This document shows positions 33,838 to 56,292 of a stretch of 64,000 bases of DNA, one piece after another (position 1 is the first letter of the stretch; each line of letters opens with the position of its first letter). The notes under the pieces are model-generated. The model searched no databases, was not told the DNA's origin, and worked only from the letters and a program-made list of their open reading frames with translations. Source of the stretch: an uncultured bacterium (GTDB taxonomy: Bacteria > Oederibacteriota > JAAXVQ01); contig CAZQGO010000001.1 in the NCBI GenBank assembly GCA_964593065.1, positions 268,565 through 332,564 of the forward strand. Reading direction: 5' to 3'. The position numbers and the translations under genes were made by a program.

Positions 33838-33900
33838 GGCCACCGACTGAAACAGGCAGGAAAGCAGGACGCATCGGCGCAGGCCCCTTCGGAGCCTGGG

Positions 33901-34045: not shown

Positions 34046-34073
34046 AAAGTTCCTTGACGGGGGAGACCCAGCC

Positions 34074-34808: not shown

Positions 34809-34872
34809 TCCGCCGCCGGATCCGGCGACGCGGAAGGTCCAAGTACGCGGGGAGAACAGGAGAACCGGGACC

Positions 34873-38922: not shown

Positions 38923-41900
38923 ATGCCGCGAACCTGTACGAAAAACATCCGCAGCCCAAGGAATATCAGGAATTCGCTACTGCGCGCCCGCCGGCGTCAC
39001 GCCGGTTTTGCGCTGTGGACGAAATGCCTTTCCCTGCTTCTCTCCCTCAGTTTCATTTTTCCCTATCTCACCTGGGCGTTTGAACCGGAAAATTTTCCGA
39101 ATCCGCCCGCGGCGGAATTTACCCCCCCGCATAAACCCATCACCATTCCTTCCGAGTACGGGATCATCACCCAGTCGTTCCGGGGCGGAGACCGCCGGGT
39201 GGTGGTGATCCAGGATTTGCATTGCAACTTTGAAGTTCAGATGAACATTGCCGGCATCCTGGATCATTTGGCGGACACCCAGGGGCTCCGGCTGGTCGGC
39301 ATCGAAGGGGCGAGCCAACCCCTCAATGTCAGCAAGCTCGGGAGCTTCCCCGTGCCCGAGGTCAAACGGCAGGTCGGCCGGTATCTGGTTCGGCGGGGAG
39401 AAATCGGGGGCCCGGAATACTATGCCGCCACCGGGCGGCATCCCATCCGGGTCAAAGGCATCGAGACCCGGAAACTTTACCAGCAGAGCCTGGCCGAAGT
39501 GCGGAGCTTTTTGAACCCGGAGAACCAGGGGATCTGCTACGACTTGCGCGAGGCGTATGAGGAACTTAAAGGCCGCTGGTACACGCCGGCCTTGGGATCC
39601 TTGGATCAACTGCAGTCCCGGTACCGCCAGGGCCAACTGGGGCTGCGCGCGTACGTCCTGGCGCTGCAGCGGGAGGCCCGAAAATTCGGCGCCGAACTTG
39701 CGGACGCGCCGGAGATGCAGGCCATCCTGCAGGGGGCGCAGGCGAACCTTCCGCCCTCCGGCGACCGGGAAAAGCTGGACAGCGAACTGGACGCATGGGT
39801 GGCCGCCCTGCGGGAAACGCTGTATACGCGGGAGGAGCAGCGGTCCCTGGACCTCTACCTGGGCCGTCTGGACGTGCTGGAAAAACTCATGCATATTTCC
39901 GCCAGTCCCGCGGAAGTATCCGCTTTCTGCGCGCACCGCCCGGACTATGCCGCGACGGCGTTTTTGCAGGGCCTGCGGCAATTGTCACCCGCCGGGACGG
40001 AGGCCCAGGACCTGGAACCGGAAATCCTCCAGCTGGATGCCTGCCTGGAACGTGTCGCGGATTTCTACCGCTTGGCCGACGAGCGCAGCGGGCAGTGCGC
40101 CGCCAATCTGCTGGACCGCATGCGCCGGGACGGGGCCGACTTGGCCGTCCTGGTCGCGGGCGGTTTTCACGCGGCAGGCATTCAAAAGACCTTGGAAAAT
40201 GCGGGGGTCTCATATCTGGGCGTGCAGCCGCGCGTGACCGACTTCGAAACCGATTCCCCCTACTTCCAGTTGCTGCAGAACCGAGTGACACCTTTGGAAA
40301 AGCTTCTGACCGCGCGGCAGAACCTGCTGGCCATCCCGGTAAGCAGCGTGGAGGTCAGGGAAGACGCCGGCACGCAAGACACAGCCGCCGCCATTCTGAA
40401 TGAAGACAACCTGGAACAGCTTGCCGGGACGCAGGACCGGCAGACCTTGCAGCGCTACCGTGCGCATCTGAATTTCATCCAGGTTCTGCTGAACGGCTGT
40501 CTCGTCGACTGGCTGGCCGGACAAGGGGCCGGCGCCCGCCTGTTCCTGAAATATTTTTCCCTGAAACAAGACTACCCTGCGGATTATTCCGGATTGGAAT
40601 TCAATGCGGCCAAAGCGACCTCGGAAACCTTGAAACAACTGGCCGCGGGCCAGCCCGCCGTCCTGCAGCTGGCGGACGCGGGCGTGCCGTTCACCCTGGT
40701 ATTGTCCCCGGCCGCGGATTCCGGGCGGGAAGCGGCGGCTCTCGCGAGCATGCCTTTGGAGGACGGCCGGAAGCTGTGGGTCATGAACCCGGCACAGGTC
40801 GAGGCCTACCGGCGGCAATGGCAGGCCGCGTCCGGCCCGGGCCGGCTGCTGCGTGAGGTAACGGTGCGCATGCCCCGCAGCCTGGCTGTGGTTTTCGCCG
40901 TGCACCTGCTGGGAAGACTGGCCCTCGCCGGGCTTGCCTTGCAGGCCCGTGGCCGGAGCATTTGGGCCGGGCTGAAAACCGCCGGCCCAGGGGCGGCCTG
41001 GGCAGGGCTGGCCAATACGGTGGTCAATTTCCTGACGGTTTCGGGCCTTGCTCTCCGGTTGGCCCGGCTCTGGCCGACGCCGGGACGGGCTCCGTCGCTT
41101 TCGGGCGGGGCGCGCAAGCCGCTGATGGAACCGCACCGGCCGCTCAGGTCCTCCGAATCCGCGGCCCTGCTGCGGCTGGCGCGGTCCCGCCCCTGGCCGG
41201 CCGTGGAAAACAAGCAGATCAATTTGCCCGGCGGGCAGCCGCTCACCCTGCCTTCCTACCGGCTGGTGGCCTATACCGCCACGGGCAGGGACGATCCCAT
41301 GGATTTGCTGCTGGCACGGAAAGGCAACGCCTATCATCTCCGGGATCCGCAAAGCGGGGAACAATTCATTTTCGTGAACCAGGCCGCCATGGACCGCGAG
41401 GAGGCCGTCGAACACGAGGAGTTCGACCTGTTCTGGACCGTGCGGCTGGAGGCGGAAGCCTCTTCGCCCGAAGGCCTGCGCCTGCCCGCCGGGTTCGACA
41501 TCCAGCGCGCCGCCCATACCCTGGCCTGGGGCCTGCAGATCGCCCTGCGCGGCTGGACCCGTGTGGGCCAGAGCGCTTTTCTACGCCATGAGCTGTTTTT
41601 CCTGGGCGAAAGCGACCTGCGGAGCCTGGCGCGCGAGAACCGCCGGCCCCATGCTCAACTCCGCGAGAGATATCTCACGCCCCTGCTGCCGCCCCAGACC
41701 CTGCAAACGATCGCGGATTTCGAAACCTCCATCCGGGACGCCTACGCGGCCAACGATCCGCGCGATTTGCGGAATTACCGGCAGGTGAGGAAAATTCTCG
41801 CCCAGGGCATCCGGGGGGAAATCCGCGCCATGCTGCGGGGAGAGCGCGAGGAGTATGCAGCCGACTATTTTCTCGAAGCCATGCCTTTCCTGGCCTTGGA

Positions 41901-44900
41901 CGACGGCGAGGAGGTCATCACCCTGCACCGGCTGGCCGACGAGCTCTACCCGGAAATCCTGGCCCAATTCAAGACGGATTTTGCCAAAGCCGCGAAAAAG
42001 CTGGCCAGGGCCGAGTACGGCCAGGCCGTGGTTGCCGATCTCCCGACCTCAGAACAGCTGTTTGCCTTATTGCAGGTGCGGAACGAATACCAGTTCGTGC
42101 TGATCCAGGGCGCAGCCGGCAGGTTCCTGCTCATCTGCAAGGGCACGGGCGAACTGCCCGACGCCCTCGTCGAACTGACCGGCGCCGGAGCCGTGGTCCC
42201 CGAGGTCTTCGGTCTGCTGCCGCTCGGACCCTATCTTGAGGCCGTGGGTCACTCCCACCCCAGAGCCGCCGGCCCCAGCCCGCGGGACCAGGACAATCAG
42301 CAGAGCCTCAGCGAGACGCTGCGGGACATGGACCTGGATCCTTCCCGGGTGGGAAGATTCGTGGTCCGGATCGATCCCAGGCTGGGGCATTGGTGGTTGT
42401 GGCGTTTTGACGCCGATACCGGGGCTTATGTCCGGCATGAGGGCCAGGCGGAAGTGCGGGAGCAGCTGGCGGACCTGGGGTTCATTCAGCGGCCCTTGGC
42501 ACCGGCCGGCGACGACCGCGAGGGCGTCATCGGCGCCATGCTGGAAGGGCATCGCGGGCTCTATGCGGAGATGGTCGAGCGGGTGGGGAAGATTGCGGCG
42601 CGGCGCGGATGGGGCGGAATATTCTCGGGCCTGGAACGGGCGCGCACGCCGCAAGACCGGCAGGCCATTGACCGGGCCCTGGCCCGGCTGCGCCAGGCCG
42701 GATTGCCGGAAGAACGAATTGAACGCATGCGGGCCAGGGTTTTCCCGGTAACTGTGGCCGAGAGCAAGCTCGGCCGGGAAGGCAGCCGTTTGGGCGGGCT
42801 GATCGTGCGCCATGCGGGGGAATATCACGTACTCTTCCCGCGGGAGCGGCTGCTCAACCCGGACCCGGAGGTCCTGGGCGACCTGCTGCACGAGCTGGTC
42901 GAGATCGAGCTGCTGGAAAACGGCTTCACCCTGGCGGAAGCGCATTGGCAGGCCCTGCGCCTGCGCCGGCTGTGGCTCGAGGGCGGGGAAGCCCCGGGGC
43001 CCGCGGTGGCCCAGGCCTGGGAGGAACTGCGGAATCCGTACCGCTGGGGTCAGTTCGAACTTGCGTTTCCCGGAATCCTGCGGGGCATCCTCGACGGGCG
43101 CAATGTATCCTCCCGCACAAACTTGGCGACCCTGCCCGAGGACCGGCTGGCAGGGATCCGCCGCGAATTCCTGGCCGCGCTGCATGCGGCCGGCTGGCAC
43201 GCCCCGCCCGAAGTGCAGGAACGTTACGAAAACATCGTGCATCATCTCCTGACCGCCGCCCAGCTCCGCCAGTTGACCCAGGCCCTGGGACCGGTCACCG
43301 AAAGAGACCTGGCCTGGGTGCTGCAGCGGCTCCATACCTTCGCGGTCCGGTTGGATGAATTCGGCGTGCAGCCGGAGGTGGCGGTCCAACTGCGGCTGCT
43401 GGACCTGTTGAACCAGCTGCCCTTCAGTGAAGCCCAGCGGGTTCAGCTGCTCGCCACGCACGGCCTGGCCGGGCCGCAGTGGGACGGAGCCGTCCCCGAT
43501 GCCGCGGTGACGCAAGCATTGCGCGCCGGGAAACTGGACGAGGCGTGGGAACGGGTCTTCGGGCAGTCACGCCCGATCGCCGAGGCCCTGCCTTTCCTCA
43601 AGGCGCTGGTCGAGTTCTTCCGGGTCTCTTTGTCCAGGATGGAAAATAACTACTTCATCAACCTCCTGCTTGATTTTCAGAATACCACCGGCAGGCCATT
43701 GGAACGGGGGACCGCGGACGAGCGGCGGCGGGCGGCGGGCGAACTGACCCGCAACACCGTGGACGGCCTGTGGATCGCGCTCGAAGTCGGGCATTACCTG
43801 GCCGACCGGGGCATCCGCATGGAGCGGTTCCTGGCGCGCGGGTTCGACGGCATCGTGTTCGAGGGCAGACTGCGCGGGCGGCCGGTCGTGATCAAAATCA
43901 ACCTGCCGCAAAACGGCCTGAAGCCGCGGGAGCTGCTGGAAAACATCAACCACGTCATGTCGGCCACGGACGGGCGGCCCGATTTTGTCCAGAACCAGGA
44001 GCTCCTCCTCATTCGCACGGTGCGGGACCAGGAGATCGTGATCGAAGTCAACGCCAGGGTGCCGGGTATTCCCCTGTGGCGGCTGCTCCACCATCCCGAA
44101 GCCTATGGCGTCGGCGCGGCCGCGGTGCTGGACCACCTCCGCCAATTCCTGGACATGCACGCCTTCCTGGCGCGGCACGGCCTGGTCAACCGCGACGCTC
44201 AGAATCTGAACAATATCGTGACCCGGCCCGACGGCCGGGACCAATTCGTCGATTTCGGAAATATCCGGCCGCGACAGCCGGGCGAAGAGACCTGGGAGCG
44301 CCGCCAGGTTCTTCTGGCCATGATCAAGATCCTCACCGGCCAGGCCATCCGGCTGGCGGAGAGCCAGGAGGGGGATCAGGGGACGGACATCGGCCGCGAG
44401 CAGTACATCGCCCTTTTCCTGAAAAGGTTCGGAGAACAGCATCGCGAACTGGCCGCGGAGATTTTCACCCTGTGGGCGGACGCCTGGGAAAATCCGGAAA
44501 AGCCCTGGGAAGAACTGAGCCAGAGCCTCGGGGAGCTCTCCGGCCGCCTGGGCGAATCCGAACGCCTGGCCAGCGGAATCGTCGGAGCCGCGCTGGTGGA
44601 GGGCGGAGGCCCGGCTGCGCCCCTCGGCCTTGCGGCTGCGGAGAGCACGCGCGGATTGAGAGCAACGGCGGAAACGCGGCCGACCGCTGCGCCGCTTCCC
44701 GGCGATGAATCCCTGGCCGGCGGGATCGGCATACCGGGCGCAAAGCTTCCCCGGAACATTCTTGCCCGCCAGGCTGCGGTTGCGGCTTTGGGCTACGGGG
44801 CTTTGGCCGCCGGACTGGCAGGCGTACTGGCGGCCTTGGGGGTGGGCGATCCGCAGGCCAATCTGGCGGTCGTGGCCTCCGTGGCGGGCTTCTTGAGCGG

Positions 44901-47900
44901 CCGGGCCGCGCTCGCCGGGCTCGCCGAATGGTTCATCAAGGGCCGGGTCCTGCGGAACGGCCCCGGCTTGATTTACGTGACGGACGGCCGCCTCGTCATC
45001 GACCGGCGTGTGCAGGTAACCTCCTTCCCGCGCCGGGTCCTCGCCTATACTGCCGGTTACATCTGCCTGGGTTTGCTCGCGGTCAGCAGTCTCGTGCATG
45101 AATTCTTCCACTATTTCCTGCCCTCGGAAACGGCCGTGTACGGCCTGGAAGCCCTGACCGTGATGACGGTCGCGGGCTTCTTCCTCAACGCGCTGTGGAT
45201 CACGGCCGCGGGCGCGCTGGCGGTGGGCGCGGTTCTCCTGGTGCGGGTGGGCAGGGAAATCAGAGCCGCCATGGCCGGCACTGCCTCTCTGGCCGCCGCG
45301 CCGGAGACAGCGGAAACCGATACCGAAACAAACGCCGCTACACCGGCTTCCTTCCTCCTTGAAGCCATGGGGCTTGGCCGGGTCGACCAGATTCCAGGTG
45401 CCACCCGCTTGCCGTTGTCCGCAGCCGACGAGTCGGTTTTCGCCACGGCGGGCTTGCAAGTGGCAAGGATCCGTCTCGATCAACAACCCTCGAGCGCTGT
45501 GCTTCCGGAAGGCGTCGAGATCCTGCGAAGAGAGTTGCTGATCCGCGGTCAGCAAACTAGTGTATTCGATCTGCTCTTGTCTTCCGATGGCGCGCGAATC
45601 CTGGCGGCATTTCCGGCCGGAGATGGGAAACAATCGGCTCCGCCAAGTGCAAAAACCGGGTGGGACTACGTGGACTTTACACCCTACTATCTGTCCCTCC
45701 CGAATCCGGCAGGCCGAGCGGCCGAAGAAGCCTGGAAAAATTTCGGGTTTGAATGGGAACGGACGCAAGCATTGGTTCAAGCTTACAAGAACGTTCGGTT
45801 CGGCCCTGCGGCCGCGCGCCTGGTCCATGCCATCAATCCCCGGGAGTCTTACGTATCCGTTGCGGTCTCGCGCTTGACCGGTAAAGTTACCGTGCGGCCT
45901 CTCTATATTAAAATGGGCTCTCTGCCCAGGCCCCGGCCCTGGACGCGGCAATTGCTGGTACCGGTTTTCCCGACGGTCTACACGTTCAACCGCTTTCTGG
46001 GCCCGGACCGTAATTTCTATGCCAAAGTATATGCTTATCTTAAAGCCGGTACGCCCGTAACGGTTTTAGGTTCGGGGTCGGGCGTGGATACGGGCCTTGC
46101 TTGCCTGAAAAGCGGGCGGCCGGTCGTCAGCTACGATGCAAATTCACTCGCCCGCGCAAACGTATCGGCCATGGCAGCTTTAAACGGCCTTGACGTCAAG
46201 GTCACGGACCAAAGACCCAGGAACCCGATAGGGCTGGTGGTCTGGAATATGCCGGCGTACACACCTCGCGGGCTGTTCGCCGACAAAACCCAGAAACAAT
46301 TAAAAGATATCTGGGACCGGGATATCGGCGGCGAAATCCTAAGGGACTTCGCGCGCTACTTGGCTGCGAATCGTGTTCCCGCGCTGATTTGGAATGAGTC
46401 CGTCCATCAGGCTGAAATTGCGGAGATCGTCCGGGCGGAAGGTTTGACCCTCCGCACCCTGGGCCGCAACGTCTTCCTGCTCGAGCCCGGCGCGCGGGAA
46501 CGGGCGCCGGACATGATTCCCGCAAATGCGGCCCCGAATGGCGCCGCACTGATCCGAGATTTCGCCCTGCCGACCGATGCGTTCCAGGGAATCCGGCCGG
46601 AACGCTTAGAGGCCCTGGCACCTCTGCTGCAGGCCCGGCTGGAAGAGAGCCGCGCACCGGCGGAGGAGTTCCCGTCAATCCTCGCCGAGACCTCCCTCTT
46701 TCTGGACCGGGCCGAATCCGCGCGGGCGCGGATGCTGGCTGGAGAAGCCCTCACCGCCGACGATCTCGCCGCCCGGCTAGCGATCGAACCGGCCGAGGCC
46801 GCACAAATCCTGGATTACCTTGGCGGCTGGGATGCCGAACTCACCTATTTGAAGGGCATCCATCCCTCGCAGGGCGGGAAAACTTACTTCCACCCCCTGG
46901 TGGCTCCGGAGGCCGTCTTCCTGACGCTGGTAATCGTGCTTGCGGCGGCGACGGGATTCACCGCCGGCTGGATGTTCGGCGCACTGTTCCTGGCCGGCGG
47001 TTTCTTGTCCGTGCTGCTCAGCTCGCCTTGGCTCCAGCGCCATCCGAAACTTCGAAAAATCGCGACAGGGCTCTCCGGCGGTATTCAAATCCTCGCCGGT
47101 GGTTTGCTCTACGTTACCTTCAATCCCGCGGGCTTATCCGCAACCGGTCTCGCGGTTTTGTTCATGCCCCTGTTGTTATCCCGGCCGATCCATGAACTGG
47201 GGCATTACGTGATCGGCAAATTCTCCGGATTGAAGACCCTGGAGTATTCGCTCTTCCGGGTGAAGATTGACCCCCGTGAATTGCAACGCTTGCACCTGCT
47301 TCCCAAAATCGCCTTCCTGAGCGCCGGCATCCTGGCGGCCGGTCTGGCCGGAATTTTACTCATCGCCTTGGGCTCGGTATTCCACCTGGCAATCATTTCG
47401 GTTTTCGGGATCCTGCTCACGGGCCTCGCACTGTTGGATTTCCTGCCCGCTTATCGTGGTGCGCTACCCTTGGATGGCTTGCGAATCTATGATGCCCTGG
47501 CTTCCGCCTTGGCCGAGTACGCGACGCAGCGGTTTCTCCTGCCCCTGCGCGAACGCCGGCAGAACCGGCGCCAGCCGCGCGGACCGTCGCCGGAAATCAG
47601 GACCCAGGCCGTTTTCCCGCTGCTCGAGTCCCTGCAGTTGACGGATCCGAAGCGCATTCCCGGTGCAAAATTCCTGGATGCCCCCCCTGTGCGGGGCCTT
47701 GATGTAAAACGCCTGGAACTGCCGCCCCTGGCCGATCCCAACCAGCCGCCCACGGGCGCGGATTACCTGCAGTGCCAGCTGGCCGACCCCACGAAGGGAG
47801 CAGTGAGGGTTTTCGATCTGCTCTATGATTCCCGCGGGCATTTGCAGGCGGTTTTTCCGGTTTTGCCGGAAACCCTGGGTCCGGGCCGGGCAGAACCGGT

Positions 47901-50900
47901 CACGGAAAAAATGATCCTGGACCACCGCCTGCGCTATCTGGATTTGTCGCCGTACTGGCTGCAAGTCCCGCCGCTGGGCGCCTCCGGGGCGCAAGCCCGC
48001 TGGCGGGCCGCGGCGCGTGCACAGAATCGGGCCCGGCGCGCCATTGAGGCCTACAAACAGGCGCGTTTTCCCGGGGATCTGGCCGAGCGTCTGGAAACAG
48101 TTCCCAGGGACTTTCCCGAGCTCGATCTCGGCTTTGGCGAAGAAACGAGGATAGTGGAGGAGGAGCTGCCGGACATCGATTTCCTGGTGGCCCGGGTGGA
48201 GCGGAATACCGGCGCGGTGCAGGTGAAGGGATATGCGCTCCGGCAGCTGGCGGCCGCCGACCTGAAACCGGAGCCGGGCTATGACTACGTGATAGCGCCT
48301 CTTTACCCTTCGGTATATTTTCCGCAGCTGGCGGCCGAACAGCCCTATTATCAGGGCATCAGCCAAGAGCTTGATTTGCAGCCCGGGCAGAGGGTGCTGG
48401 TGGCGGGTCCCGGTACCGGTCTGGATGTCTGGCTCGCCTGGAGGCAAACGAAGAACAAGGTGTATGTGGTGGGCCTGAATCCCATGGAAATCGCCAACAC
48501 CCGCGCCTTTGCCGCCGCCGCGGGTTTTGAGGTGGAGGCCGTGGTGGGGGACAATATCGTCACGGCCGATGGCCTTCCGCGTTTTGCAGAGCCTTTCGAC
48601 CGCGTACTGTACAATACGCCTTTCCTGGCTCTCGGGGAAGAGGAACAGCCGACCTATTATGAATTTTTGGAAGACCGTTGGGATGGAGATTACGGCGGCG
48701 GCATGCTCCGCCGATTCGCCCGGGGCCTGCTCGAGGTTCTGAAACCTGGCGGCCAGGCCTGGATCTGGCGGAGCGTCAAACATCACCTGCAGGAATCCAC
48801 GGCTTGCTTGAAAACCGCCGGACGAACCCTGGACCCGGCCGTCCTGCGCGAGGGGCCGGACCTGCTGGAGGTGGAGGAAAAGGCCCAGGGGGTCTGCCGG
48901 GTCACGCGTCCGGGAGCGGACGTAGTGGATCCCAGGCCGGTGCTCGCCGGGCTGCTGCACGCGGCCCATGTGCGTTACGACCTGGCGGTTCGAAAAGTGG
49001 TCAATGCCTCCCAGGAACCGAAGACGGGTCTTTACGGAGGCGCCGGAGCCGATCTTGCCAATTTCCTGTTGTCGACCAACGCCCGCATCGGTTATTTCGT
49101 GGCCCGGTATGCAGGCTTGGATGTCTCGGATCTGGAGCGGCTGGCGGATTACCGGGGAAAAGTGAATCCGGACTATGCCCGGGAAAAATTCCGGAAAGGT
49201 TTTGCCTCCACAGCCGATGTGACGGCCAAGGAAGACATTCTGGCGGCTTTGGCGTTCGAGCTGGAGGCCCTGGGCGTTGATTTGGACCAGGTCCGCGCGG
49301 ACGATGATGCCGGGCATCCCCGCATTCGTTTTGAATGGGCTTACCCGGGAGCCGGGCCTGAAACTTACGCCGTGACCTTCCTGGACGGAGACATCACATC
49401 GCTGGGCGCATTGGATGAATCGGGCCGGCTGCCCGCAGGGTGTCCGCAGAAACTGGTGGACGTACTCGACGGGAAATTTGATATCTACTACCAAAGGGCG
49501 GGAGGCCAAATGGCCTCCGGATACGCGCAACCGCACAATTATATTCATTCCCTCTATGCCGCGTTGAGTCCCGGAGGCCATATGATTACGGATGATTATG
49601 CGCTGACCGGGCCACGCCGAAATCGGGTTATGGATTTCGGGGCTCAATTCCCGCTGGCTCTCGCGGAAGTCGGGCTTCCGCGAGCCGGGGACTTGGCGGA
49701 GGACATCCTGCGGGTACGAATCTCCCTGGCCGGCGTGCCGGAAAGTCTGCGGTCGTTGTTTTACACCACCGAGAAATCCGCGCCGGAAAATTACTACGGC
49801 TGGCATGTGCGCATCCGGCAGAAACCCGGCGCGACGCCTGCCGCATCCGAGCCCGGGCCGGCCGGCCGACGTGGCGCCAGACCGGCCGCGGCCCCCGAGG
49901 GACCACGGCCGCTGCCTGGAACCCAGGGGCCGCCCGCGGAGGCAAGGGTCGCCCAGGCCGGCCTGCGGGCACTGTTCCACGGCGGGGCTTTCCTGGTTCT
50001 GCCCGGCTTGGCGGCGCTCCTCGATCATGCCGGCGGTCTGGCCGCCGCCTGGGTCCGCCTTCTGACCGGCCGGCGGCCCGTGTCCGGCCGTCTCAGCCTG
50101 ACGCCGCCACCGCAAACCAGGCATCCCGGACCGGGAGTCGCTCGGGCCATCGCGCTCGTAACCCTGTGGGCTCTATCTCCGGGTGCGGTGTACGCCCAGG
50201 GACCGGGAGGAGATGCTTCCGTCCCTGAAAGATTCCTTGCGGTTCTGGCCGCGTCGCTAGCCTTCCTATCGATCCTTGCTTTGCCCTTTGTTTTCATGGC
50301 ATTGAAAGAGCGCAAGGTCAAGGCCGACTTGCTGGCCATAGAGCAAGGCGCGGCCCGGGGTGATTTCCTGCCTGCGGTCAAGGCGCTCGGCCAAAAGAAC
50401 GAAACCATCAGGGGGCGCGCCAGGGAAGTGGTGGCCGGGGCCGGGGTTCGGGCGTTGCCTGCCATGCATGAAATGTTGGCCACGAGGGAAAGGAGAATAA
50501 TCCAAACGGATGCTTTCTGGGATAGTTTCGGACGGGTCGCGGATCAGAGCTCCATTCCCCTGCTCGAGAATGCTTACGACGAGATGACTATATCGGCCCG
50601 GCGGCGATTCATCGATGACTACGAGATTAGTCAAATATGCAGGCTTCTGCACCGTCCGTGGCCGGTACACGAGTTTGAGCTGGCGGGCCGCCCGTATACG
50701 GAAGCGGACTATCACCAGGATGAGCGCCGGTTGTCGCAGTTGGAAAAACGCTTACAGGCGACTCCAGAGCAGATCGGTACTACGGTGGGGGATAAACCCC
50801 ATGTGGATCAAGGCGGATTCCGGACGTACAAAACGGTCTGGGAATCGAATCCGGAATATCCTGCGGTCCTGCGGTCAATCCGTGATTTGCAAAATCGGAT

Positions 50901-53616
50901 GCACGCGTTTCGCATCGAGCTTCCAAAACTGGCAGAAATCCATGCGATGGGCGCAAGACGCACAGTATTGCCGCGCATCGGTCTGAAGGCCCTCTATCTC
51001 GCGGAAATGGCGAGAACGGGATTGCCGGTCCCGGACGGATTCGTGATCCCCCCGGATGTGGATGTGAATGAGCCGCGTGACGGCCAGGCGATCCTGCAAG
51101 CGGCGGCTGCCTTCTTCGCGCGGCATGAGACCTTGATTGTGCGCAGCAGTCCCGAGATCTCCATGCCGGGAATGCTGGAAACCATCGGAAATATCACCAC
51201 CGAGCAGGAGCTCGTGCAAGCCATCCGACAGGTGCGGTTATCCTGGAGCAAACCCGAGGTTGTAGAGTACCGGAAACAGCAAGGACTGCCGATGTACATG
51301 GACCTGCCGGTGATTGTACAGAAGATGGCCGCGGGCGACAAAAATCAACTCTCGGGCAGTGGGGTGTTCTTCACACGCGATCCCGTGAACGGCTCGGCCA
51401 CTCCGGTTTTACGATTCGCGGTGCAGGCCAAGGGCGAAGCGGTGGTCGGCCGGGCCCCGCAAGCGCCTTTATCACAGTTCCCGGAAAGGTTCGCCTGGGC
51501 ATTCGACCGACTTCGGTCCGCGGGCGGACAATTGGAGCGCACGTTCCGCGAAGCCGTGGAGATGGAGTTCGTCATCGAAAACGGCGAACTGTGGATCGTG
51601 CAAGCCAGGCCGGCTGCCATGTCCGCCAACGCCCGGCTTCAGTCCGCTTTGGAAATGAGCGTGGAAGGGCTGGTTGAACCAGCCACACTGGCTGCGGCCG
51701 TGGGCAACGCGATGTATCAGCCCCTGTACCGCGTCGCTCCGAACGCCGAACTGCTGGAACTCGGACGGGGCCTCGGATCCGCACCCGGCGCGGTTCGGGG
51801 CACGGTCGTGACCAGTCTGGCGCAAGCCGAGCAGGCGAGGCGGGAAGGCAAGAAGTGTATCCTCGCGGCGTGGAATCATCCCGAACAAATCCCAAGAGCG
51901 CTTTTGGACGGCATGGTCGTGGGTGTGGTGACAGCAAACGGTCACGAGGCGCTGCACGACAGCGTCCTGGCGCGCTCTCTCGGTATTCCCGTCGTGGATC
52001 AAGTGCGCGGGGGGGAACAGCGGCTGAAACCCGGGACCGAGGTCATCCTGGACGGCACTACGGGCAGGATCTTTGCGGCTCCGGCCGGACCCAATCCGTT
52101 CCTTCTGGACAGTTTCGTGGAGGTAGCTGGCACCCGATTCAGCATCCGGCAGGAACAAAACCTGAACAGGGAACGATATGCAGGACGGAAGGATTATCGT
52201 CCGCTGATCCGGGAACATGCGGCCCTGACGGAGAAATATCTGGTCCGCAGCGAAGGATTTGGAACTCTGGAGATCCTGAAGTTGAGCATTCAAGCCCATG
52301 CGGCGCACGAGCGGATACGCGACTTGGGTAGCCAAGGCCGTAAATACCGGTCACCAGAACGCATCGCAAAAGATATCTCGGCGGCTTATTCCCCTGCGGT
52401 TAAGGCGGCACTGGAAAAGAGGCGCGCCGGATTGCCACCCTTGGGATCCGATGGAAGTCCCGAGTCTGCTGGCGGCGTCCTGCCTTTTGTCAAAGCCCGG
52501 TGGGTGAACCGGGGCAACCCGGACGAAGCCGTGCGGGCCCAGCGCGCGGCGGCCTACGACACCCGCACGGCCTGGTGGCTGGAGAACGGACTTTTGTATG
52601 GCGTGGCGGCTGTGCCGGTGCTGATCGGCATTCTGGGCTTCGGGCTGCCAGCCCTGGCCACGGCCGGGGCGGGCTACGTGCTGGTCTGGGCCCTGTTCGC
52701 GCCTTTGCACTACCTGCGCACCCGGGCCGGCCGTGCGCCGCCGGCCAACCTCCGTGCGGCGTGGGTGATTGCGGGTATCAATTTGGCCTTTGCCCCCGCC
52801 CTGCTTCTAGCGCCCGGATTCCTGCCGGCCATCGTGGGGGCATCCTTGGTCACGCACTGGGGGGTAAACCACTGGCTCGGATCGTCGCGGGCCGATTTTG
52901 GACTTGATTCGGCGCTGCTTCAAACCGGAGTACGCGCGGTGCTCGGCAGAGGTGCCTCCCTGGCCCTGCCCGGCTCAGCGGCGCTGCTTGACAATGCCGG
53001 CGGTGTGGCGTCCGCAATGATCCGGCTGGTGGCCGGAGCTCGGCCCGTGTCCGGCCGTCTCACACTGACGCTTCCAGCGCAAACCTCGCATCCCGGACCG
53101 GGAGTTGCGCTGGCCGTTGCGGTCGGGAGAGCGACCGGAGCCACGCGCCTAGGCGTTCTGAGCCGGCAATGGGCCCTCGGCCGCCAGCCGGAAGCCTACC
53201 TCGCGGCCTGGGGCCGGGCCGCGCAGTACCGCTCCGCGCTGGGCCGCGAGCTGCAAAACGAGAACAGCCAGGTGAGACGCCTGATCCGGCGCGGCGCGGG
53301 GAACGACCTCCGCCAAATGCAGCGGCAACTGCTGACCACGCTGGCGGATATGCTCAGGCAGGAGCCGCCCAGCGAGGAATTGCTGGCCGAAACCCTGGAC
53401 TTCATGCAGGCCTTGGCTCCCATGGCGACGATGACAGCCGGAAGCCTGGGCAACAAAGCCATTCGCCTGCCCCGCTTGCTGTTCGCGCCCGAAATGAGAA
53501 GGGAATTGCGGTTCTGGCTGGACTATTTCCGGAATTTCCCGGACCTCCGGTTGCGGGAGAGACGCGAACTGTCCCCAAGACGCCGAGCCCCGCGCACGGT
53601 CGGCCGCTCGGCCTAA
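38923..53616 (+). CDS. Giant (4,897 aa) multi-pass membrane, multi-enzyme mosaic protein of unknown function
   Basis: A single stop-free frame of 14,694 nt with protein-like composition throughout. Multiple independent catalytic-type motifs are listed as sub-features below. An in-frame stop 33 nt upstream (38890) fixes ATG 38923 as the first ATG. Confidence 0.85.
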   Translation: MPRTCTKNIRSPRNIRNSLLRARRRHAGFALWTKCLSLLLSLSFIFPYLTWAFEPENFPNPPAAEFTPPHKPITIPSEYGIITQSFRGGDRRVVVIQDLHCNFEVQMNIAGILDHLADTQGLRLVGIEGASQPLNVSKLGSFPVPEVKRQVGRYLVRRGEIGGPEYYAATGRHPIRVKGIETRKLYQQSLAEVRSFLNPENQGICYDLREAYEELKGRWYTPALGSLDQLQSRYRQGQLGLRAYVLALQREARKFGAELADAPEMQAILQGAQANLPPSGDREKLDSELDAWVAALRETLYTREEQRSLDLYLGRLDVLEKLMHISASPAEVSAFCAHRPDYAATAFLQGLRQLSPAGTEAQDLEPEILQLDACLERVADFYRLADERSGQCAANLLDRMRRDGADLAVLVAGGFHAAGIQKTLENAGVSYLGVQPRVTDFETDSPYFQLLQNRVTPLEKLLTARQNLLAIPVSSVEVREDAGTQDTAAAILNEDNLEQLAGTQDRQTLQRYRAHLNFIQVLLNGCLVDWLAGQGAGARLFLKYFSLKQDYPADYSGLEFNAAKATSETLKQLAAGQPAVLQLADAGVPFTLVLSPAADSGREAAALASMPLEDGRKLWVMNPAQVEAYRRQWQAASGPGRLLREVTVRMPRSLAVVFAVHLLGRLALAGLALQARGRSIWAGLKTAGPGAAWAGLANTVVNFLTVSGLALRLARLWPTPGRAPSLSGGARKPLMEPHRPLRSSESAALLRLARSRPWPAVENKQINLPGGQPLTLPSYRLVAYTATGRDDPMDLLLARKGNAYHLRDPQSGEQFIFVNQAAMDREEAVEHEEFDLFWTVRLEAEASSPEGLRLPAGFDIQRAAHTLAWGLQIALRGWTRVGQSAFLRHELFFLGESDLRSLARENRRPHAQLRERYLTPLLPPQTLQTIADFETSIRDAYAANDPRDLRNYRQVRKILAQGIRGEIRAMLRGEREEYAADYFLEAMPFLALDDGEEVITLHRLADELYPEILAQFKTDFAKAAKKLARAEYGQAVVADLPTSEQLFALLQVRNEYQFVLIQGAAGRFLLICKGTGELPDALVELTGAGAVVPEVFGLLPLGPYLEAVGHSHPRAAGPSPRDQDNQQSLSETLRDMDLDPSRVGRFVVRIDPRLGHWWLWRFDADTGAYVRHEGQAEVREQLADLGFIQRPLAPAGDDREGVIGAMLEGHRGLYAEMVERVGKIAARRGWGGIFSGLERARTPQDRQAIDRALARLRQAGLPEERIERMRARVFPVTVAESKLGREGSRLGGLIVRHAGEYHVLFPRERLLNPDPEVLGDLLHELVEIELLENGFTLAEAHWQALRLRRLWLEGGEAPGPAVAQAWEELRNPYRWGQFELAFPGILRGILDGRNVSSRTNLATLPEDRLAGIRREFLAALHAAGWHAPPEVQERYENIVHHLLTAAQLRQLTQALGPVTERDLAWVLQRLHTFAVRLDEFGVQPEVAVQLRLLDLLNQLPFSEAQRVQLLATHGLAGPQWDGAVPDAAVTQALRAGKLDEAWERVFGQSRPIAEALPFLKALVEFFRVSLSRMENNYFINLLLDFQNTTGRPLERGTADERRRAAGELTRNTVDGLWIALEVGHYLADRGIRMERFLARGFDGIVFEGRLRGRPVVIKINLPQNGLKPRELLENINHVMSATDGRPDFVQNQELLLIRTVRDQEIVIEVNARVPGIPLWRLLHHPEAYGVGAAAVLDHLRQFLDMHAFLARHGLVNRDAQNLNNIVTRPDGRDQFVDFGNIRPRQPGEETWERRQVLLAMIKILTGQAIRLAESQEGDQGTDIGREQYIALFLKRFGEQHRELAAEIFTLWADAWENPEKPWEELSQSLGELSGRLGESERLASGIVGAALVEGGGPAAPLGLAAAESTRGLRATAETRPTAAPLPGDESLAGGIGIPGAKLPRNILARQAAVAALGYGALAAGLAGVLAALGVGDPQANLAVVASVAGFLSGRAALAGLAEWFIKGRVLRNGPGLIYVTDGRLVIDRRVQVTSFPRRVLAYTAGYICLGLLAVSSLVHEFFHYFLPSETAVYGLEALTVMTVAGFFLNALWITAAGALAVGAVLLVRVGREIRAAMAGTASLAAAPETAETDTETNAATPASFLLEAMGLGRVDQIPGATRLPLSAADESVFATAGLQVARIRLDQQPSSAVLPEGVEILRRELLIRGQQTSVFDLLLSSDGARILAAFPAGDGKQSAPPSAKTGWDYVDFTPYYLSLPNPAGRAAEEAWKNFGFEWERTQALVQAYKNVRFGPAAARLVHAINPRESYVSVAVSRLTGKVTVRPLYIKMGSLPRPRPWTRQLLVPVFPTVYTFNRFLGPDRNFYAKVYAYLKAGTPVTVLGSGSGVDTGLACLKSGRPVVSYDANSLARANVSAMAALNGLDVKVTDQRPRNPIGLVVWNMPAYTPRGLFADKTQKQLKDIWDRDIGGEILRDFARYLAANRVPALIWNESVHQAEIAEIVRAEGLTLRTLGRNVFLLEPGARERAPDMIPANAAPNGAALIRDFALPTDAFQGIRPERLEALAPLLQARLEESRAPAEEFPSILAETSLFLDRAESARARMLAGEALTADDLAARLAIEPAEAAQILDYLGGWDAELTYLKGIHPSQGGKTYFHPLVAPEAVFLTLVIVLAAATGFTAGWMFGALFLAGGFLSVLLSSPWLQRHPKLRKIATGLSGGIQILAGGLLYVTFNPAGLSATGLAVLFMPLLLSRPIHELGHYVIGKFSGLKTLEYSLFRVKIDPRELQRLHLLPKIAFLSAGILAAGLAGILLIALGSVFHLAIISVFGILLTGLALLDFLPAYRGALPLDGLRIYDALASALAEYATQRFLLPLRERRQNRRQPRGPSPEIRTQAVFPLLESLQLTDPKRIPGAKFLDAPPVRGLDVKRLELPPLADPNQPPTGADYLQCQLADPTKGAVRVFDLLYDSRGHLQAVFPVLPETLGPGRAEPVTEKMILDHRLRYLDLSPYWLQVPPLGASGAQARWRAAARAQNRARRAIEAYKQARFPGDLAERLETVPRDFPELDLGFGEETRIVEEELPDIDFLVARVERNTGAVQVKGYALRQLAAADLKPEPGYDYVIAPLYPSVYFPQLAAEQPYYQGISQELDLQPGQRVLVAGPGTGLDVWLAWRQTKNKVYVVGLNPMEIANTRAFAAAAGFEVEAVVGDNIVTADGLPRFAEPFDRVLYNTPFLALGEEEQPTYYEFLEDRWDGDYGGGMLRRFARGLLEVLKPGGQAWIWRSVKHHLQESTACLKTAGRTLDPAVLREGPDLLEVEEKAQGVCRVTRPGADVVDPRPVLAGLLHAAHVRYDLAVRKVVNASQEPKTGLYGGAGADLANFLLSTNARIGYFVARYAGLDVSDLERLADYRGKVNPDYAREKFRKGFASTADVTAKEDILAALAFELEALGVDLDQVRADDDAGHPRIRFEWAYPGAGPETYAVTFLDGDITSLGALDESGRLPAGCPQKLVDVLDGKFDIYYQRAGGQMASGYAQPHNYIHSLYAALSPGGHMITDDYALTGPRRNRVMDFGAQFPLALAEVGLPRAGDLAEDILRVRISLAGVPESLRSLFYTTEKSAPENYYGWHVRIRQKPGATPAASEPGPAGRRGARPAAAPEGPRPLPGTQGPPAEARVAQAGLRALFHGGAFLVLPGLAALLDHAGGLAAAWVRLLTGRRPVSGRLSLTPPPQTRHPGPGVARAIALVTLWALSPGAVYAQGPGGDASVPERFLAVLAASLAFLSILALPFVFMALKERKVKADLLAIEQGAARGDFLPAVKALGQKNETIRGRAREVVAGAGVRALPAMHEMLATRERRIIQTDAFWDSFGRVADQSSIPLLENAYDEMTISARRRFIDDYEISQICRLLHRPWPVHEFELAGRPYTEADYHQDERRLSQLEKRLQATPEQIGTTVGDKPHVDQGGFRTYKTVWESNPEYPAVLRSIRDLQNRMHAFRIELPKLAEIHAMGARRTVLPRIGLKALYLAEMARTGLPVPDGFVIPPDVDVNEPRDGQAILQAAAAFFARHETLIVRSSPEISMPGMLETIGNITTEQELVQAIRQVRLSWSKPEVVEYRKQQGLPMYMDLPVIVQKMAAGDKNQLSGSGVFFTRDPVNGSATPVLRFAVQAKGEAVVGRAPQAPLSQFPERFAWAFDRLRSAGGQLERTFREAVEMEFVIENGELWIVQARPAAMSANARLQSALEMSVEGLVEPATLAAAVGNAMYQPLYRVAPNAELLELGRGLGSAPGAVRGTVVTSLAQAEQARREGKKCILAAWNHPEQIPRALLDGMVVGVVTANGHEALHDSVLARSLGIPVVDQVRGGEQRLKPGTEVILDGTTGRIFAAPAGPNPFLLDSFVEVAGTRFSIRQEQNLNRERYAGRKDYRPLIREHAALTEKYLVRSEGFGTLEILKLSIQAHAAHERIRDLGSQGRKYRSPERIAKDISAAYSPAVKAALEKRRAGLPPLGSDGSPESAGGVLPFVKARWVNRGNPDEAVRAQRAAAYDTRTAWWLENGLLYGVAAVPVLIGILGFGLPALATAGAGYVLVWALFAPLHYLRTRAGRAPPANLRAAWVIAGINLAFAPALLLAPGFLPAIVGASLVTHWGVNHWLGSSRADFGLDSALLQTGVRAVLGRGASLALPGSAALLDNAGGVASAMIRLVAGARPVSGRLTLTLPAQTSHPGPGVALAVAVGRATGATRLGVLSRQWALGRQPEAYLAAWGRAAQYRSALGRELQNENSQVRRLIRRGAGNDLRQMQRQLLTTLADMLRQEPPSEELLAETLDFMQALAPMATMTAGSLGNKAIRLPRLLFAPEMRRELRFWLDYFRNFPDLRLRERRELSPRRRAPRTVGRSA
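39007..39081 (+). other. Giant ORF: N-terminal signal-anchor / TM helix
   Basis: FALWTKCLSLLLSLSFIFPYLTWAF preceded by an Arg-rich segment (LLRARRRH). Confidence 0.6.
39175..40243 (+). other. Giant ORF: TraB/ChaN/Tiki-superfamily-like domain
   Basis: RRVVVIQDLHCNFEVQMNIAGILDHL...LVGIEGAS near the start and DLAVLVAGGFHAAGI near the end. These resemble the paired (GE/D)xH....H and GxxH motifs of the ChaN/TraB/erythromycin-esterase (Tiki) fold. Confidence 0.4.
40880..41075 (+). other. Giant ORF: hydrophobic segment (probably 2 TM helices)
   Basis: LAVVFAVHLLGRLALAGLAL ... WAGLANTVVNFLTVSGLALRLARLW. Confidence 0.4.
42080..42420 (+). other. Giant ORF: JAB/MPN-like metalloprotease motif region
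   Basis: AVGHSHPRAAGPSPRD (His1110, His1112) resembles the JAMM signature HxHx7Sx2D as seen in RadC/prokaryotic JAB (HNHPSGxxxPSxxD), but is one residue shorter between H and S. Confidence 0.3.
43812..44400 (+). other. Giant ORF: protein-kinase-like domain
   Basis: Gly-rich loop LARGFDGIVFEG and VVIK (Lys1658). Catalytic loop HGLVNRDAQNLNN (Asp1758, with Asn at +5). DFG (Asp1777). The order and spacing fit the eukaryotic-like/atypical kinase fold, with HRD changed to NRD. Confidence 0.6.
44755..45255 (+). other. Giant ORF: TM block 1 with membrane-embedded HEFFH motif (degenerate M50-like)
   Basis: Several hydrophobic helices. HEFFH (His2059-His2063) sits inside one of them. I found no downstream xxPLDG motif. 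Confidence 0.45.
45950..46490 (+). other. Giant ORF: HemK/PrmC-like class I SAM methyltransferase domain 1
   Basis: Motif I VTVLGSGSGVDTG and motif IV VVWNMPAY (Asn2442), an NPPY variant. DIGGEILRDF matches the family's dGG.dGl segment. Confidence 0.7.
46885..47510 (+). other. Giant ORF: TM block 2, site-2-protease (peptidase M50)-like domain
   Basis: HELGH (His2757-His2761) lies in a TM helix. A downstream LLDFLPAYRGALPLDG (Asp2851) matches the S2P pair HExxH plus (N/D)xxPxxxLDG. Confidence 0.65.
48291..48775 (+). other. Giant ORF: HemK/PrmC-like class I SAM methyltransferase domain 2
   Basis: Motif I VLVAGPGTGLD and motif IV VLYNTPFL (Asn3231), then DGDYGGGMLRRF and LKPGGQAWIW. It is parallel to domain 1, including the preceding PxVY(F)P segment. 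Confidence 0.7.
48990..49620 (+). other. Giant ORF: third Rossmann/methyltransferase-like segment (weak)
   Basis: LYGGAGADLANF (Gly-rich), FLDGDI, FDIYYQRAGG and LSPGGHMITDDY loosely follow the class I MTase motif order. Confidence 0.3.
49960..50150 (+). repeat. Giant ORF: intragenic direct repeat, copy R1
   Basis: Encodes GLRALFHGGAFLVLPGLAALLDHAGGLAAAWVRLLTGRRPVSGRLSLTPPPQTRHPGPGVARAIA. It shares identical nucleotide blocks with R2: a 22-nt block (50074-50095 = 53041-53062) and an 18-nt block (50121-50138 = 53088-53105). Confidence 0.9.
50320..50600 (+). other. Giant ORF: HEAT/PBS-lyase-like helical repeats (weak)
   Basis: AVKALGQKNETIRGRAREVVAGAGVRALPAMHEML...SSIPLLENAYDE resembles short HEAT-like repeats. 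Confidence 0.3.
50965..51615 (+). other. Giant ORF: pyruvate-phosphate-dikinase-type ATP-grasp (PPDK_N-like) nucleotide-binding domain
   Basis: LYLAEMARTGLPVPDGFVI, IVRSSPEISMPGMLETIGN, RLSWSKPEVVEYRK, SGSGVFFTRDPVNG, KGEAVVGR and VEMEFVIENGELWIVQARPA parallel the conserved blocks of PPDK/PEP synthase N-terminal domains. The helical insert subdomain seems to be missing. Confidence 0.8.
51760..52090 (+). other. Giant ORF: PEP-utilising-enzyme mobile (phosphohistidine swivel) domain
   Basis: GSAPGAVRGTVV...KKCILAAWNHPEQIPRALLDGMVVGVVTANGHEALHDSVLARSLGIPVV...VILDGTTGRIF. His4345 aligns with the catalytic His of GGxTSHAAxxAR. Confidence 0.7.
52560..52880 (+). other. Giant ORF: C-terminal TM cluster
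   Basis: AWWLENGLLYGVAAVPVLIGILGFGLPALATAGAGYVLVWALFAPL ... AAWVIAGINLAFAPALLLAPGFLPAIVGASLV. Confidence 0.5.
52927..53117 (+). repeat. Giant ORF: intragenic direct repeat, copy R2
   Basis: Encodes GVRAVLGRGASLALPGSAALLDNAGGVASAMIRLVAGARPVSGRLTLTLPAQTSHPGPGVALAVA. 43 of 65 residues are identical to R1 by hand alignment. The offset is exactly 2,967 nt (989 codons). Confidence 0.9.
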
Positions 53617-53721
53617 TCCGAGGCGCCAAGAGAGAGAAAATTGTATATAATATGTAAACGGCGGAATCAGGCGGCACCAGCGCCTCCGGTTCCGACTTCC
53701 AGTATTGGCGAGGGTCATTCC

Positions 53722-54513
53722 ATGCCCGCTCAGGGGACGGAAAGGGAAGCAGCGCTGATCTTGCAGGCTGCCGACCTGCTGCGCAGGAGCCGGCATATTC
53801 TCTTTATCACCGGGGCCGGACTTTCCGCGGATTCCGGGCTGCCGACCTACCGGGGAATCGGCGGCCTGTATGAACAGGAAGCCGCCGAGGAGGGCCTCCC
53901 CATCGAGGAAGCGCTGTCCGGGCACATGCTCCAGGCCCGGCCGGAAATTTCGTGGAAATACCTGTTGCAGATGGAGCAGGCTTGCCGGGGAGCCGCCTGC
54001 AACCGCGGGCACGAGGTCATCGCCCTCATCGAAAAGGAGCGCGAACGCGTCTGGGTACTCACGCAGAACATCGACGGATTTCACCAGGCCGCGGGTTCCC
54101 AACAAGTGATCGACATTCACGGCGACATCCACGATCTGCAGTGCACCCGCTGCGATTTTCGGAAACGGGTGCCGGACTTTGAAGATTGGGTCTCCCTCCC
54201 GCCTGCCTGCCCGGCCTGCGGAGCAGTCTTGCGGCCCCGGGTCGTGCTTTTCGGAGAACGGCTTCCCGAGGACAAGGTCGACACCCTCCAGGCCGAACTG
54301 TCCCGGGGGTTCGACCTGATTTTTACCATCGGCACGACCAGCGTCCTTCCTTATATTGCCTGGCCGGTATTGACCGCCAAGCGGCTGGGGATCCCGACCG
54401 TGGAGATCAATCCCGGAACCTCCGCGGTTTCCGGGGCGGTGGACCTCCGCCTTCCCCTGGGCGCGGCCTGGGCCCTGGATGCCGTCTGGAAAGCCAGCCA
54501 TGGAAAAAATTAG
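53722..54513 (+). CDS. cobB: NAD-dependent protein deacylase, Sir2/CobB family
   Basis: [22 protein letters not shown] (catalytic His) and Zn ribbon CTRCDF...CPACG. About 263 aa, the canonical short sirtuin size. Confidence 0.9.
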
Positions 54514-55231: not shown

Positions 55232-55245
55232 AAGCGAGCGGAGGG

Positions 55246-56136: not shown

Positions 56137-56157
56137 TCTGGCCTCCGTTTCGGCCCC

Positions 56158-56179
56158 GGCCGGCGGTTCGCCGCCGGCC
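56158..56179 (-). promoter_or_regulatory. GC-rich hairpin in the 5' leader of the UbiA-family gene
   Basis: GGCCGGCGG-ttcg-CCGCCGGCC, a perfect 9-bp stem with a tetraloop, 22 nt upstream of the start and just upstream of the GGAGG RBS. Confidence 0.5.
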
Positions 56180-56292
56180 GAAACCCGTGGTCGTTGCAGA
56201 CAAAACGCACTTTCAATTGCTCAATATGTATATTATGATACCGCATAAAGCAAGCAAAGAAATTCCAGACTGAAAAAGCGGCGGGAGCCCTC

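Follow-up and report, generated by a model that had tools for sequence, protein, structure and literature searches.

Results

A dikinase-like cassette within a giant membrane protein

The window analysed here, a stretch of 64,000 nucleotides (64 kb) from contig CAZQGO010000001.1 of an uncultured bacterium of the Oederibacteriota, carries an open reading frame (ORF) of 14.7 kb that encodes a giant membrane protein of 4,897 amino acids (aa), within which lies a cassette related to pyruvate phosphate dikinase (PPDK). An initial annotation, made from the sequence without database searches, had described positions 50965-52090 as a PPDK-like ATP-grasp domain plus a phosphohistidine swivel domain embedded in this protein, and the segment is in frame with the ORF at 38923-53616, position 50965 being codon 4015. 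The motifs quoted in that annotation (SMPGMLET, SWSKPEVVEYR, SGSGVFFTRDP, GEAVVG, MEFVIENGELWIVQAR and ALHDSVLAR) were all found in frame and where it had placed them. Because the G+C contents of the three codon positions (0.70/0.47/0.75) keep a coding pattern over the whole ORF, and because the chance of 4,897 stop-free codons at the local base composition is about 1e-60, the ORF is a real gene and not a chance reading frame.

Four alignments are referred to below: A1, with 47 diverse homologues; A2, with 11 sequences of the clade that contains the cassette; A4, covering the N-terminal domain of the giant protein; and A6, with 16 sequences of the extension that follows the swivel domain. The features at the center of the analysis are these, each with the evidence for it in brackets:

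38923..53616, forward strand: giant ORF, 4,897 aa, multi-pass membrane multidomain protein carrying the cassette (ORF list, translation, coding-frame G+C)
50965..51657, forward strand: insert-less PPDK-type ATP-grasp nucleotide-binding domain, aa 4015-4245 (Pfam, PDB alignment 1dik/2r82, invariant columns of A1 and A2, AlphaFold2, Foldseek)
51658..52092, forward strand: linker and phosphohistidine swivel domain, aa 4246-4390 (Pfam, alignment to PPDK ~380-469, Foldseek 2fm4)
51955..51957, forward strand: codon of His4345, predicted phospho-acceptor, in the loop TANGHEALHDSVLAR (aligned to the H of GGMTSH in PDB PPDKs)
52093..52386, forward strand: clade-specific extension after the swivel domain, aa 4391-4488, with a predicted fold of three short strands and four helices (HMMER match ends, alignments, AlphaFold2)
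52306..52308, forward strand: codon of His4462 (invariant column H71 of A6, H451 of A2)

Domain identity and fold of the cassette

Searches of the cassette part of the giant protein against Pfam returned PPDK_N (PF01326; E 5e-31, 108.6 bits, cut-off 27) and PEP-utilizers (E 5e-10, 39.3 bits, cut-off 23.1), both well over their cut-offs, and nothing else significant. A phmmer search of the PDB placed C. symbiosum PPDK at the top (E 4e-34), followed by plant and trypanosome PPDKs, phosphoenolpyruvate (PEP) synthases and rifampin phosphotransferase (RPH). The swivel part aligned to PPDK residues ~380-469 and was matched by Foldseek to the PPDK phosphoryl-carrier domain 2fm4. For aa 3990-4439, an AlphaFold2 model computed with 46 homologues reached a predicted local distance difference test score (pLDDT) of 81.6 and a predicted template modelling score (pTM) of 0.82, and its best Foldseek matches were PPDK 1kbl/1dik (E 5e-30; template modelling score TMq 0.75). 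A second model, of aa 4012-4492 with clade members, gave pLDDT 85.2 and pTM 0.83, and in both the His domain is docked as in 1kbl/1dik. PPDK is thus the closest known protein in sequence and fold, with the same order of ATP-grasp and swivel domains, the same ATP/Mg ligands and the same catalytic His. The cassette is a genuine and apparently active PPDK-derived ATP-grasp plus swivel unit.

Catalytic residues and the histidine loop

In the alignment with PDB sequences, PPDK residues K22, R92, G101, E323, Q335 and R337 correspond to K4022, R4074, G4083, E4215, Q4227 and R4229 of the giant protein, D321 is conservatively replaced by E4213, and the catalytic H455 corresponds to H4345; both the ATP-grasp residues and the catalytic His are therefore conserved. 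The His of ALHDSVLAR is residue 4345, as the initial annotation had numbered it, and is equivalent to His455 of C. symbiosum PPDK and to His422 of VadK (Rv1127c) from M. tuberculosis. It is invariant in A1 and in A2. The giant protein retains 35 of the 35 invariant columns of A1, among them R(VRS), SMPGM, E-F, Q-x-R and the catalytic His, and departs from the A1 consensus in having GLKA in place of GGKG and a 5-residue insertion in the swivel domain.

The most notable departure from consensus is in the His loop, where the near-universal GGxTSHAAVVAR is replaced by NGHEALHDSVLAR. In this loop (N-G-H-E-A-L-H-D-S-V-L-A-R) the His is aligned and four columns conserved at ≥90% are altered; the T453-S454 pair that precedes the His in PPDK is A-L in the giant protein, so that the canonical T-S-H motif is lost. 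Within A2, whose members share 27-38% identity with the query, R4074, E4215, R4229, H4345 and H4462 do not vary at all, and K4022 and Q4227 hardly do; invariance of the active site at this level of divergence argues for purifying selection on catalysis.

The clade loop also spells H-E-A-L-H (51943-51957, aa 4341-4345), with a second conserved His four residues before the phospho-acceptor. A reading of HEALH as a zincin HExxH motif was discarded, since P0140 and P0141, two relatives described below, have HDALH and the residues precede a helix in the model.

Loss of the helical insert and of the PEP/pyruvate barrel

The deletion of the helical insert of the nucleotide-binding domain, which the initial annotation had noticed, was borne out by alignments and motif spacing alike. 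In the PDB alignment, chain residue 116 is followed directly by 202 (query 139, restarting at query 136), so that a helical insert of ~85 residues is absent; tblastn with a canonical 899-aa PPDK gave matches through its residues 13-131 and 200-518 only; and the distance from SMPG to SW is 27 residues in the giant protein versus ~113-120 in canonical PPDKs. Compared with PPDK, then, the cassette lacks both the helical insert (~residues 117-201) and the TIM barrel.

The absence of a PEP/pyruvate barrel downstream was likewise upheld by Pfam, PDB and tblastn searches. PF02896 had no match in the whole giant protein, nor in aa 4391-4897 at E<=5; tblastn of a barrel sequence against the 64-kb window yielded noise only (E>2); and a PDB sequence search with the C-terminal 507 aa of the giant protein found nothing meaningful. 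PF02896 was also found in none of the clade members scanned.

A distinct clade recurring in long and giant proteins

An exhaustive HMMER search with aa 3700-4897 returned 5,157 proteins at E<=1e-3, headed by a sharply separate top group (E 1e-74 to 1e-51, 34-40% identity) whose matches run from ~aa 4017 to 4465-4492. Three marks distinguish this group. The helical insert is missing, the distance from SMPG to SW being 26-28 aa (26-27 in P0137-P0147). The His loop has the form G-H-[ED]-A-L-H-[ED]-[SA]-[VI]-L-A-[RK], present as GHEALHDSVLAR in the giant protein and found in 11 of the 11 best hits, with lower hits reverting to GGxTSHAAVVAR. Finally, the swivel domain is followed by an extension of ~100 residues with an invariant His. 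In a midpoint-rooted neighbor-joining tree of 189 sequences, computed without bootstrap, the giant protein falls in a clade of 12-14 members opposite 175 canonical or short PPDK-like sequences. By these sequence criteria the cassette is one member of a distinct clade, found repeatedly in other long and giant proteins, whose taxonomic range is judged here from ~17 representatives from the HMMER search and a few names.

Other searches returned no further members. A scan of genome contigs with aa 3700-4897 found no relatives; a genome contig scan with A2 found no clade members, being swamped by canonical PPDK loci that share a degenerate QE[IV]EF... pattern; and word-index protein searches returned canonical PPDKs only for A2 and nothing for a further alignment, A3.

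Most clade members are long multidomain proteins (1,000-4,000 aa) or fragments of such proteins, among them:

P0138: 1,662 aa, labelled Candidatus Omnitrophota (metagenome-assembled genome), spanning its entire contig; among the closest relatives
P0140: 1,516 aa
P0141: 1,643 aa
P0143: 3,462 aa
P0147: 3,945 aa, flanked by a 15,268-aa ORF
P0156: 3,964 aa
P0167: 2,815 aa

The Pfam domains that accompany the cassette vary from one relative to the next and include HEAT, M20/M28 peptidase, metallophosphoesterase, GNAT, APH kinase, PGM/PMM, alpha-amylase, NUDIX and HD; HEAT_2 lies directly upstream of the cassette in P0139, P0140, P0141 and P0310. P0144 (663 aa; L087:352-2343) and P0146 (760 aa; L089:8001-10283) are complete stand-alone genes, so that the cassette and its extension form an autonomous unit. 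The loci of three relatives have G+C contents of 46-49%, versus 63% in the window.

Two of the loci deserve description. P0147, with its PGM/PMM, cassette and alpha-amylase parts, lies between ORFs of 15,268 and 2,458 aa in a cluster of giant genes (L086:1-23838). The gene of P0146 immediately follows one for a CHASE3-GAF-HisKA-HATPase-REC-REC-Hpt hybrid kinase on the same strand, and PHO4/PhoU genes are nearby.

A conserved extension in the place of the barrel

What follows the swivel domain had been described in the initial annotation as a helical and transmembrane region and not a barrel. The absence of the barrel stood, but the part that directly follows is the conserved extension of ~100 aa, and the cluster of transmembrane helices begins only at aa 4553. 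The extension sits where the PEP/pyruvate barrel would be. HMMER matches of the clade extend to query positions 766-793 (aa 4465-4492), about 100 residues past the swivel domain, and the block pLDDT of the AlphaFold2 model computed with A2 is mostly 67-88 across it. H4462 is invariant in 16 of the 16 aligned extensions, in an AHxxH motif that reads AHAAHE in the giant protein and AHVIHQ in relatives. A per-member Pfam scan of the 16 extensions gave scattered noise only. Among the relatives, the extension is the only constant neighbor of the swivel domain.

Proposed activity and precedents

Our preferred reading, to which we give a probability of roughly 0.55, is that 50965-52386 encodes a functional, PPDK-derived cassette of three parts (ATP-grasp, swivel and extension) that would carry out ATP-dependent phosphotransfer to an acceptor other than pyruvate. 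MgATP would bind the ATP-grasp domain through K4022, R4074, E4215, Q4227 and R4229, and His4345 would attack the beta-phosphate, with AMP leaving and pyrophosphoryl-His being formed; water or inorganic phosphate (Pi) would then take the gamma-phosphate, generating phospho-His4345. The swivel domain would depart from the ATP site and pass the phosphoryl group to the non-pyruvate acceptor or, alternatively, the phospho-state might itself be the switch, as proposed for VadK. The extension with its invariant His4462 would be the best candidate for a docking or acceptor site, because it is the most constant neighbor of the swivel domain across the clade, and the variable enzyme domains of the giant protein would be less likely direct partners. 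The most likely activity is an ATP-dependent autophosphorylation of H4345, which we infer because all nucleotide-site residues and the His are kept under evident selection; by itself the cassette cannot produce PEP.

In PPDK, PEP synthase and RPH (PMC4844700) and in HpeHI (PMC12167813), ATP bound in the ATP-grasp site is attacked at its beta-phosphate by the swivel His, giving a pyrophosphoryl-His whose terminal phosphate goes to Pi or water; the phospho-His then swings to a second site where the phosphate is delivered. VadK, a barrel-less derivative of PPDK, autophosphorylates the homologous His with ATP and Mg2+ (PMC13400623), and its H422A and ATP-site mutants are non-functional, both sites being needed in vivo (PMC13400623). 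The proposal of the initial annotation that the cassette could deliver phosphate from ATP to a protein or small-molecule acceptor finds support in the existence of such barrel-less relatives, RPH, HpeHI and VadK.

By analogy, the cassette would work most like VadK, its nearest characterized analogue, yet it stands outside the VadK family. VadK and the proteins of NF004531 and PRK05878 likewise consist of a PPDK-derived ATP-grasp and swivel unit with no barrel, and among the NCBIfam models NF004531 scores highest on the cassette (165.3 bits with the whole protein, 176.8 with a 533-aa segment), though below its cut-off of 456. Proteins of the VadK type are soluble and stand-alone, with ~490-530 aa, whereas the giant cassette occupies aa 4015-4488 of a membrane protein of 4,897 aa. 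The sampled barrel-less homologues of about VadK size (~420-520 aa) have the canonical GGxTSHAAVV loop and most have at least part of the insert, in contrast to the GHEALHD of the giant protein, which also falls in a separate neighbor-joining clade and has the conserved extension with its invariant His. The curated PPDK model TIGR01828 (EC 2.7.9.1) gave 150-162 bits, under its cut-off of 843.45. RPH and HpeHI also combine an ATP-grasp domain with a phospho-His swivel acting on a non-pyruvate acceptor but, although sequence and fold searches pick them up, are much more distant (Foldseek E 1e-13, ~11-15% identity), and RPH has, between the ATP-grasp and its C-terminal swivel, a large rifampin-binding domain for which the giant protein has no counterpart.

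Points against the preferred reading and alternative explanations

Several observations weigh against phosphotransfer by the cassette. GEDVV of the consensus is GEAVV in the giant protein (D to A), and G352, S355, A357 and A358 (A1 numbering) are replaced in its His loop, an alteration that could change or abolish phosphotransfer. The helical insert that is missing here may help phosphate handling in PPDK, as mutagenesis indicates. The negative result for the barrel covers the 64-kb window, and a barrel protein encoded in the rest of the genome could possibly act in trans. The extension has no Pfam or PDB sequence match, which makes its acceptor role conjectural, and when tried as an Hpt domain it gave an hhalign probability of 0.1% against one Hpt sequence. 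The topology discussed below comes from a crude hydropathy scan.

The altered His loop and the GEAVV change could also be taken as signs of a catalytically dead scaffold or conformational module whose fold is kept for structure or protein contacts. The change from GG-x-T-S-H-A-A to G-H-E-A-L-H-D-S, scores far under all NCBIfam equivalog cut-offs and the report that giant proteins carry highly divergent domains (10.1101/2023.11.21.568195) are in keeping with this explanation, but we regard it as improbable: the ATP/Mg-binding residues and the catalytic His show little or no variation at 27-38% identity, unlike what neutral drift would leave, and the altered loop GH[ED]ALHE[SA][VI]LA[RK] is strictly conserved in the 11 best hits, which indicates a selected variant and not decay. 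Somewhat more probable, though still doubtful, is a water dikinase for small molecules or glycans, of the RPH, HpeHI or glucan-water-dikinase type. Its substrate, a metabolite, lipid or polysaccharide bound either to the extension or to some other domain of the giant protein, would receive the phosphate of phospho-His4345 on a hydroxyl group. RPH and HpeHI reuse the ATP-grasp and swivel domains with substrate domains other than a barrel, RPH ranks in both the sequence and the fold searches, the insert-less ATP-grasp is nearer to the water-dikinase branch than to PPDK, and P0147 has PGM/PMM and alpha-amylase domains while other members have NUDIX/HD or metallophosphoesterase. On the other hand, the extension of ~100 residues has no detectable likeness to the RIF-binding domain or to a carbohydrate-binding module, and as the partner domains differ in each relative it would be the sole constant option for a substrate domain. 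Moreover, the swivel follows the ATP-grasp directly, as in PPDK, and the RPH model NF041857, whose cut-off is 999, yields 34-47 bits.

A true PPDK or PEP synthase that borrows a PEP/pyruvate barrel in trans is very improbable. PPDK is the top match in both family and structure searches, West-Roberts et al. (bioRxiv 10.1101/2023.11.21.568195) describe such domains as interconverting pyruvate and PEP, and split dikinases such as HpeHI exist; however, the barrel is missing from the protein, from the 64-kb window and from every clade member scanned (PF02896), a different conserved domain fills its position, and the T-S-H motif is lost. A long shot, finally, is a self-contained, AMP-forming His-to-His phosphorelay. 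ATP would pyrophosphorylate H4345, and phosphate would move on to H4462 of the four-helix extension, which would serve as a carrier similar to Hpt but with a fold family of its own; the last recipients would be enzymatic domains of giant membrane proteins or response regulators that act as partners. The invariance of H4462, the conserved extra His4341 and the position of P0146 beside a hybrid His kinase with an Hpt domain are circumstantial hints in this direction, against which counts the absence of any sequence-profile likeness between the extension and Hpt. Such a relay, if it existed, would make the cassette a module for signalling or energising driven by ATP, with no relation to the GHKL histidine kinases, and would explain the recurrence of "PPDK domains" in giant proteins of the Omnitrophota type.

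Relation to the giant proteins of Omnitrophota

The presence of PPDK_N domains in giant proteins is already known: PPDK_N is among the 20 commonest domains of the "Archaeovorin" giant proteins of Omnitrophota, where it was read as interconverting pyruvate and PEP (bioRxiv 10.1101/2023.11.21.568195). Archaeovorins are likewise very long multi-pass membrane proteins with many enzyme domains, including HEAT, methyltransferases, peptidase-like parts and PPDK_N, but that study covers proteins of >30,000 aa (genes >90 kb), compared with 4,897 aa and 14.7 kb here. Set against the Archaeovorin domain set as published (HEAT, glycosyltransferases, glycoside hydrolases, methyltransferases, peptidases, NUDIX and PPDK_N, with many transmembrane helices), the giant protein has PPDK_N, weak methyltransferase matches, membrane HExxH motifs and many transmembrane segments; no glycosyltransferase, glycoside hydrolase, NUDIX or significant HEAT domain was found in it by Pfam. 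A 2026 preprint on long proteins of Omnitrophota does not discuss PPDK_N domains, and the literature searched held no report of the barrel-less and insert-less architecture, the changed His loop, the conserved extension, the stand-alone members or the shared N-terminal domain described below.

As the clade members scanned have no barrel, the reading as pyruvate/PEP-converting domains is removed for this clade, which would correct the published functional reading. An ATP-driven phosphohistidine module would offer a concrete biochemical handle on proteins that are functionally opaque, and a soluble fragment of ~480 residues with the two predicted key histidines (H4345 and H4462) a tractable entry point. 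VadK has shown that a PPDK can turn into a kinase that autophosphorylates on His; the predicted activity would add a second such lineage, independent of VadK and different in structure.

Topology and other domains of the giant protein

A hydropathy scan detected an N-terminal signal anchor and several clusters of transmembrane helices. The further features of the protein are:

39010..40335, forward strand: conserved N-terminal domain, aa 30-471 (BLASTP to P0167, P0143 and P0156; alignment A4)
49954..50157, forward strand: repeat R1, aa 3678-3745, upstream copy (self-BLAST, DNA alignment)
50236..50301, forward strand: transmembrane helix, aa 3772-3793, followed by the K/R-rich KERKVK (hydropathy 2.48; flank K/R 1 vs 5)
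50320..50892, forward strand: helical region that precedes the cassette, aa 3800-3990 (relatives suggest a possible HEAT-like character)
52579..52839, forward strand: cluster of 3-4 transmembrane helices, aa 4553-4639, closing the cassette loop (hydropathy scan; R-rich segment just upstream)
52921..53124, forward strand: repeat R2, aa 4667-4734, downstream copy (self-BLAST, DNA alignment)

The cassette lies in a loop of ~760 residues (aa 3794-4552) between the single helix and the cluster, with K/R-rich flanks on the cassette side. From the positive-inside rule and the need of the domain for ATP we infer that this loop is cytoplasmic. The helical region at aa 3800-3990 has no significant Pfam match in the giant protein itself. 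The loop is bracketed by R1 and R2, a direct repeat of 204 bp (68 aa; 65% aa identity, E 7e-21, with exact runs of ~20 nt), which could reflect the duplication of a membrane element or mark the ends of a module that was inserted.

The N-terminal domain is 36-38% identical to that of P0167 (E 4e-86) and is also common to P0143 and P0156, all three being full-length relatives. The giant protein and these relatives thus form one family, in which a common head is joined to a middle that varies and to the cassette. It had no Pfam match and no meaningful PDB match; its invariant motifs (IQD-H, E-G, G-x-E and GGFH) may resemble those of proteins of the Tiki/ChaN/TraB type.

Pfam searches at E<=5 with ten segments of the giant protein left most of it without matches. 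HExxH motifs occur at aa 2059 (45097-45111) and aa 2757 (47191-47205), within hydrophobic stretches rich in transmembrane segments, and each is followed by a copy of a duplicated methyltransferase module of ~420 aa (aa 2127-2544 and 2885-3327; 26-29% identity) with NMPA/NTPF (NPPY-like) motifs and weak similarity to HemK2/N6AMT1. From its sequence, the combination looks like a repeated "membrane zincin-like plus N-methyltransferase" unit. A third methyltransferase trace in the protein is TylF-like. A protein-kinase-like stretch (VVIKI ... HGLVNRDAQNLNN ... FVDFG) is present at ~43990-44300 (aa ~1690-1790); this region had marginal PDB matches only (E 0.16-0.24, aa 1251-1950), and in P0143 a similarly placed segment matches the Pfam APH domain significantly.

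Genomic context

The G+C content is 64.1% in the giant gene, 61.4% in the cassette and 63.3% in the 64-kb window. A scan of metagenome contigs found as its sole match an independently assembled contig from the same organism, 99.9% identical over 51804-56202 (4.4 kb; L003); the matching stretch begins within the swivel domain and continues beyond the giant gene into those downstream. Recent horizontal acquisition and an assembly chimera were excluded by the G+C content close to that of the window, the continuous coding-frame signature and this contig, which spans the junction from the swivel domain to the downstream genes. The giant protein is a singleton at 90% clustering and is encoded on an NCBI contig of 416,687 bp.

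Upstream of the giant gene, on the same strand, is an exporter operon of the composition OEP-HlyD-ABC ATPase-ABC2-ABC2 (32149-38748), which ends 175 bp before the giant start. Downstream, a canonical sirtuin gene (53641-54513; Sir2, PF02146, E 2e-39) begins 25 bp past the giant stop, and is followed by genes for a pseudouridine synthase and a UbiA-family protein. No neighboring gene points to a substrate, and the neighbors of the relatives differ. Farther upstream, on the reverse strand (24603-27098), an 831-aa protein with NosD/right-handed beta-helix, invasin-D3 and C-terminal FlgD-Ig-like domains is encoded; it is probably a secreted or surface protein, and its gene adjoins that of a patatin-like phospholipase.

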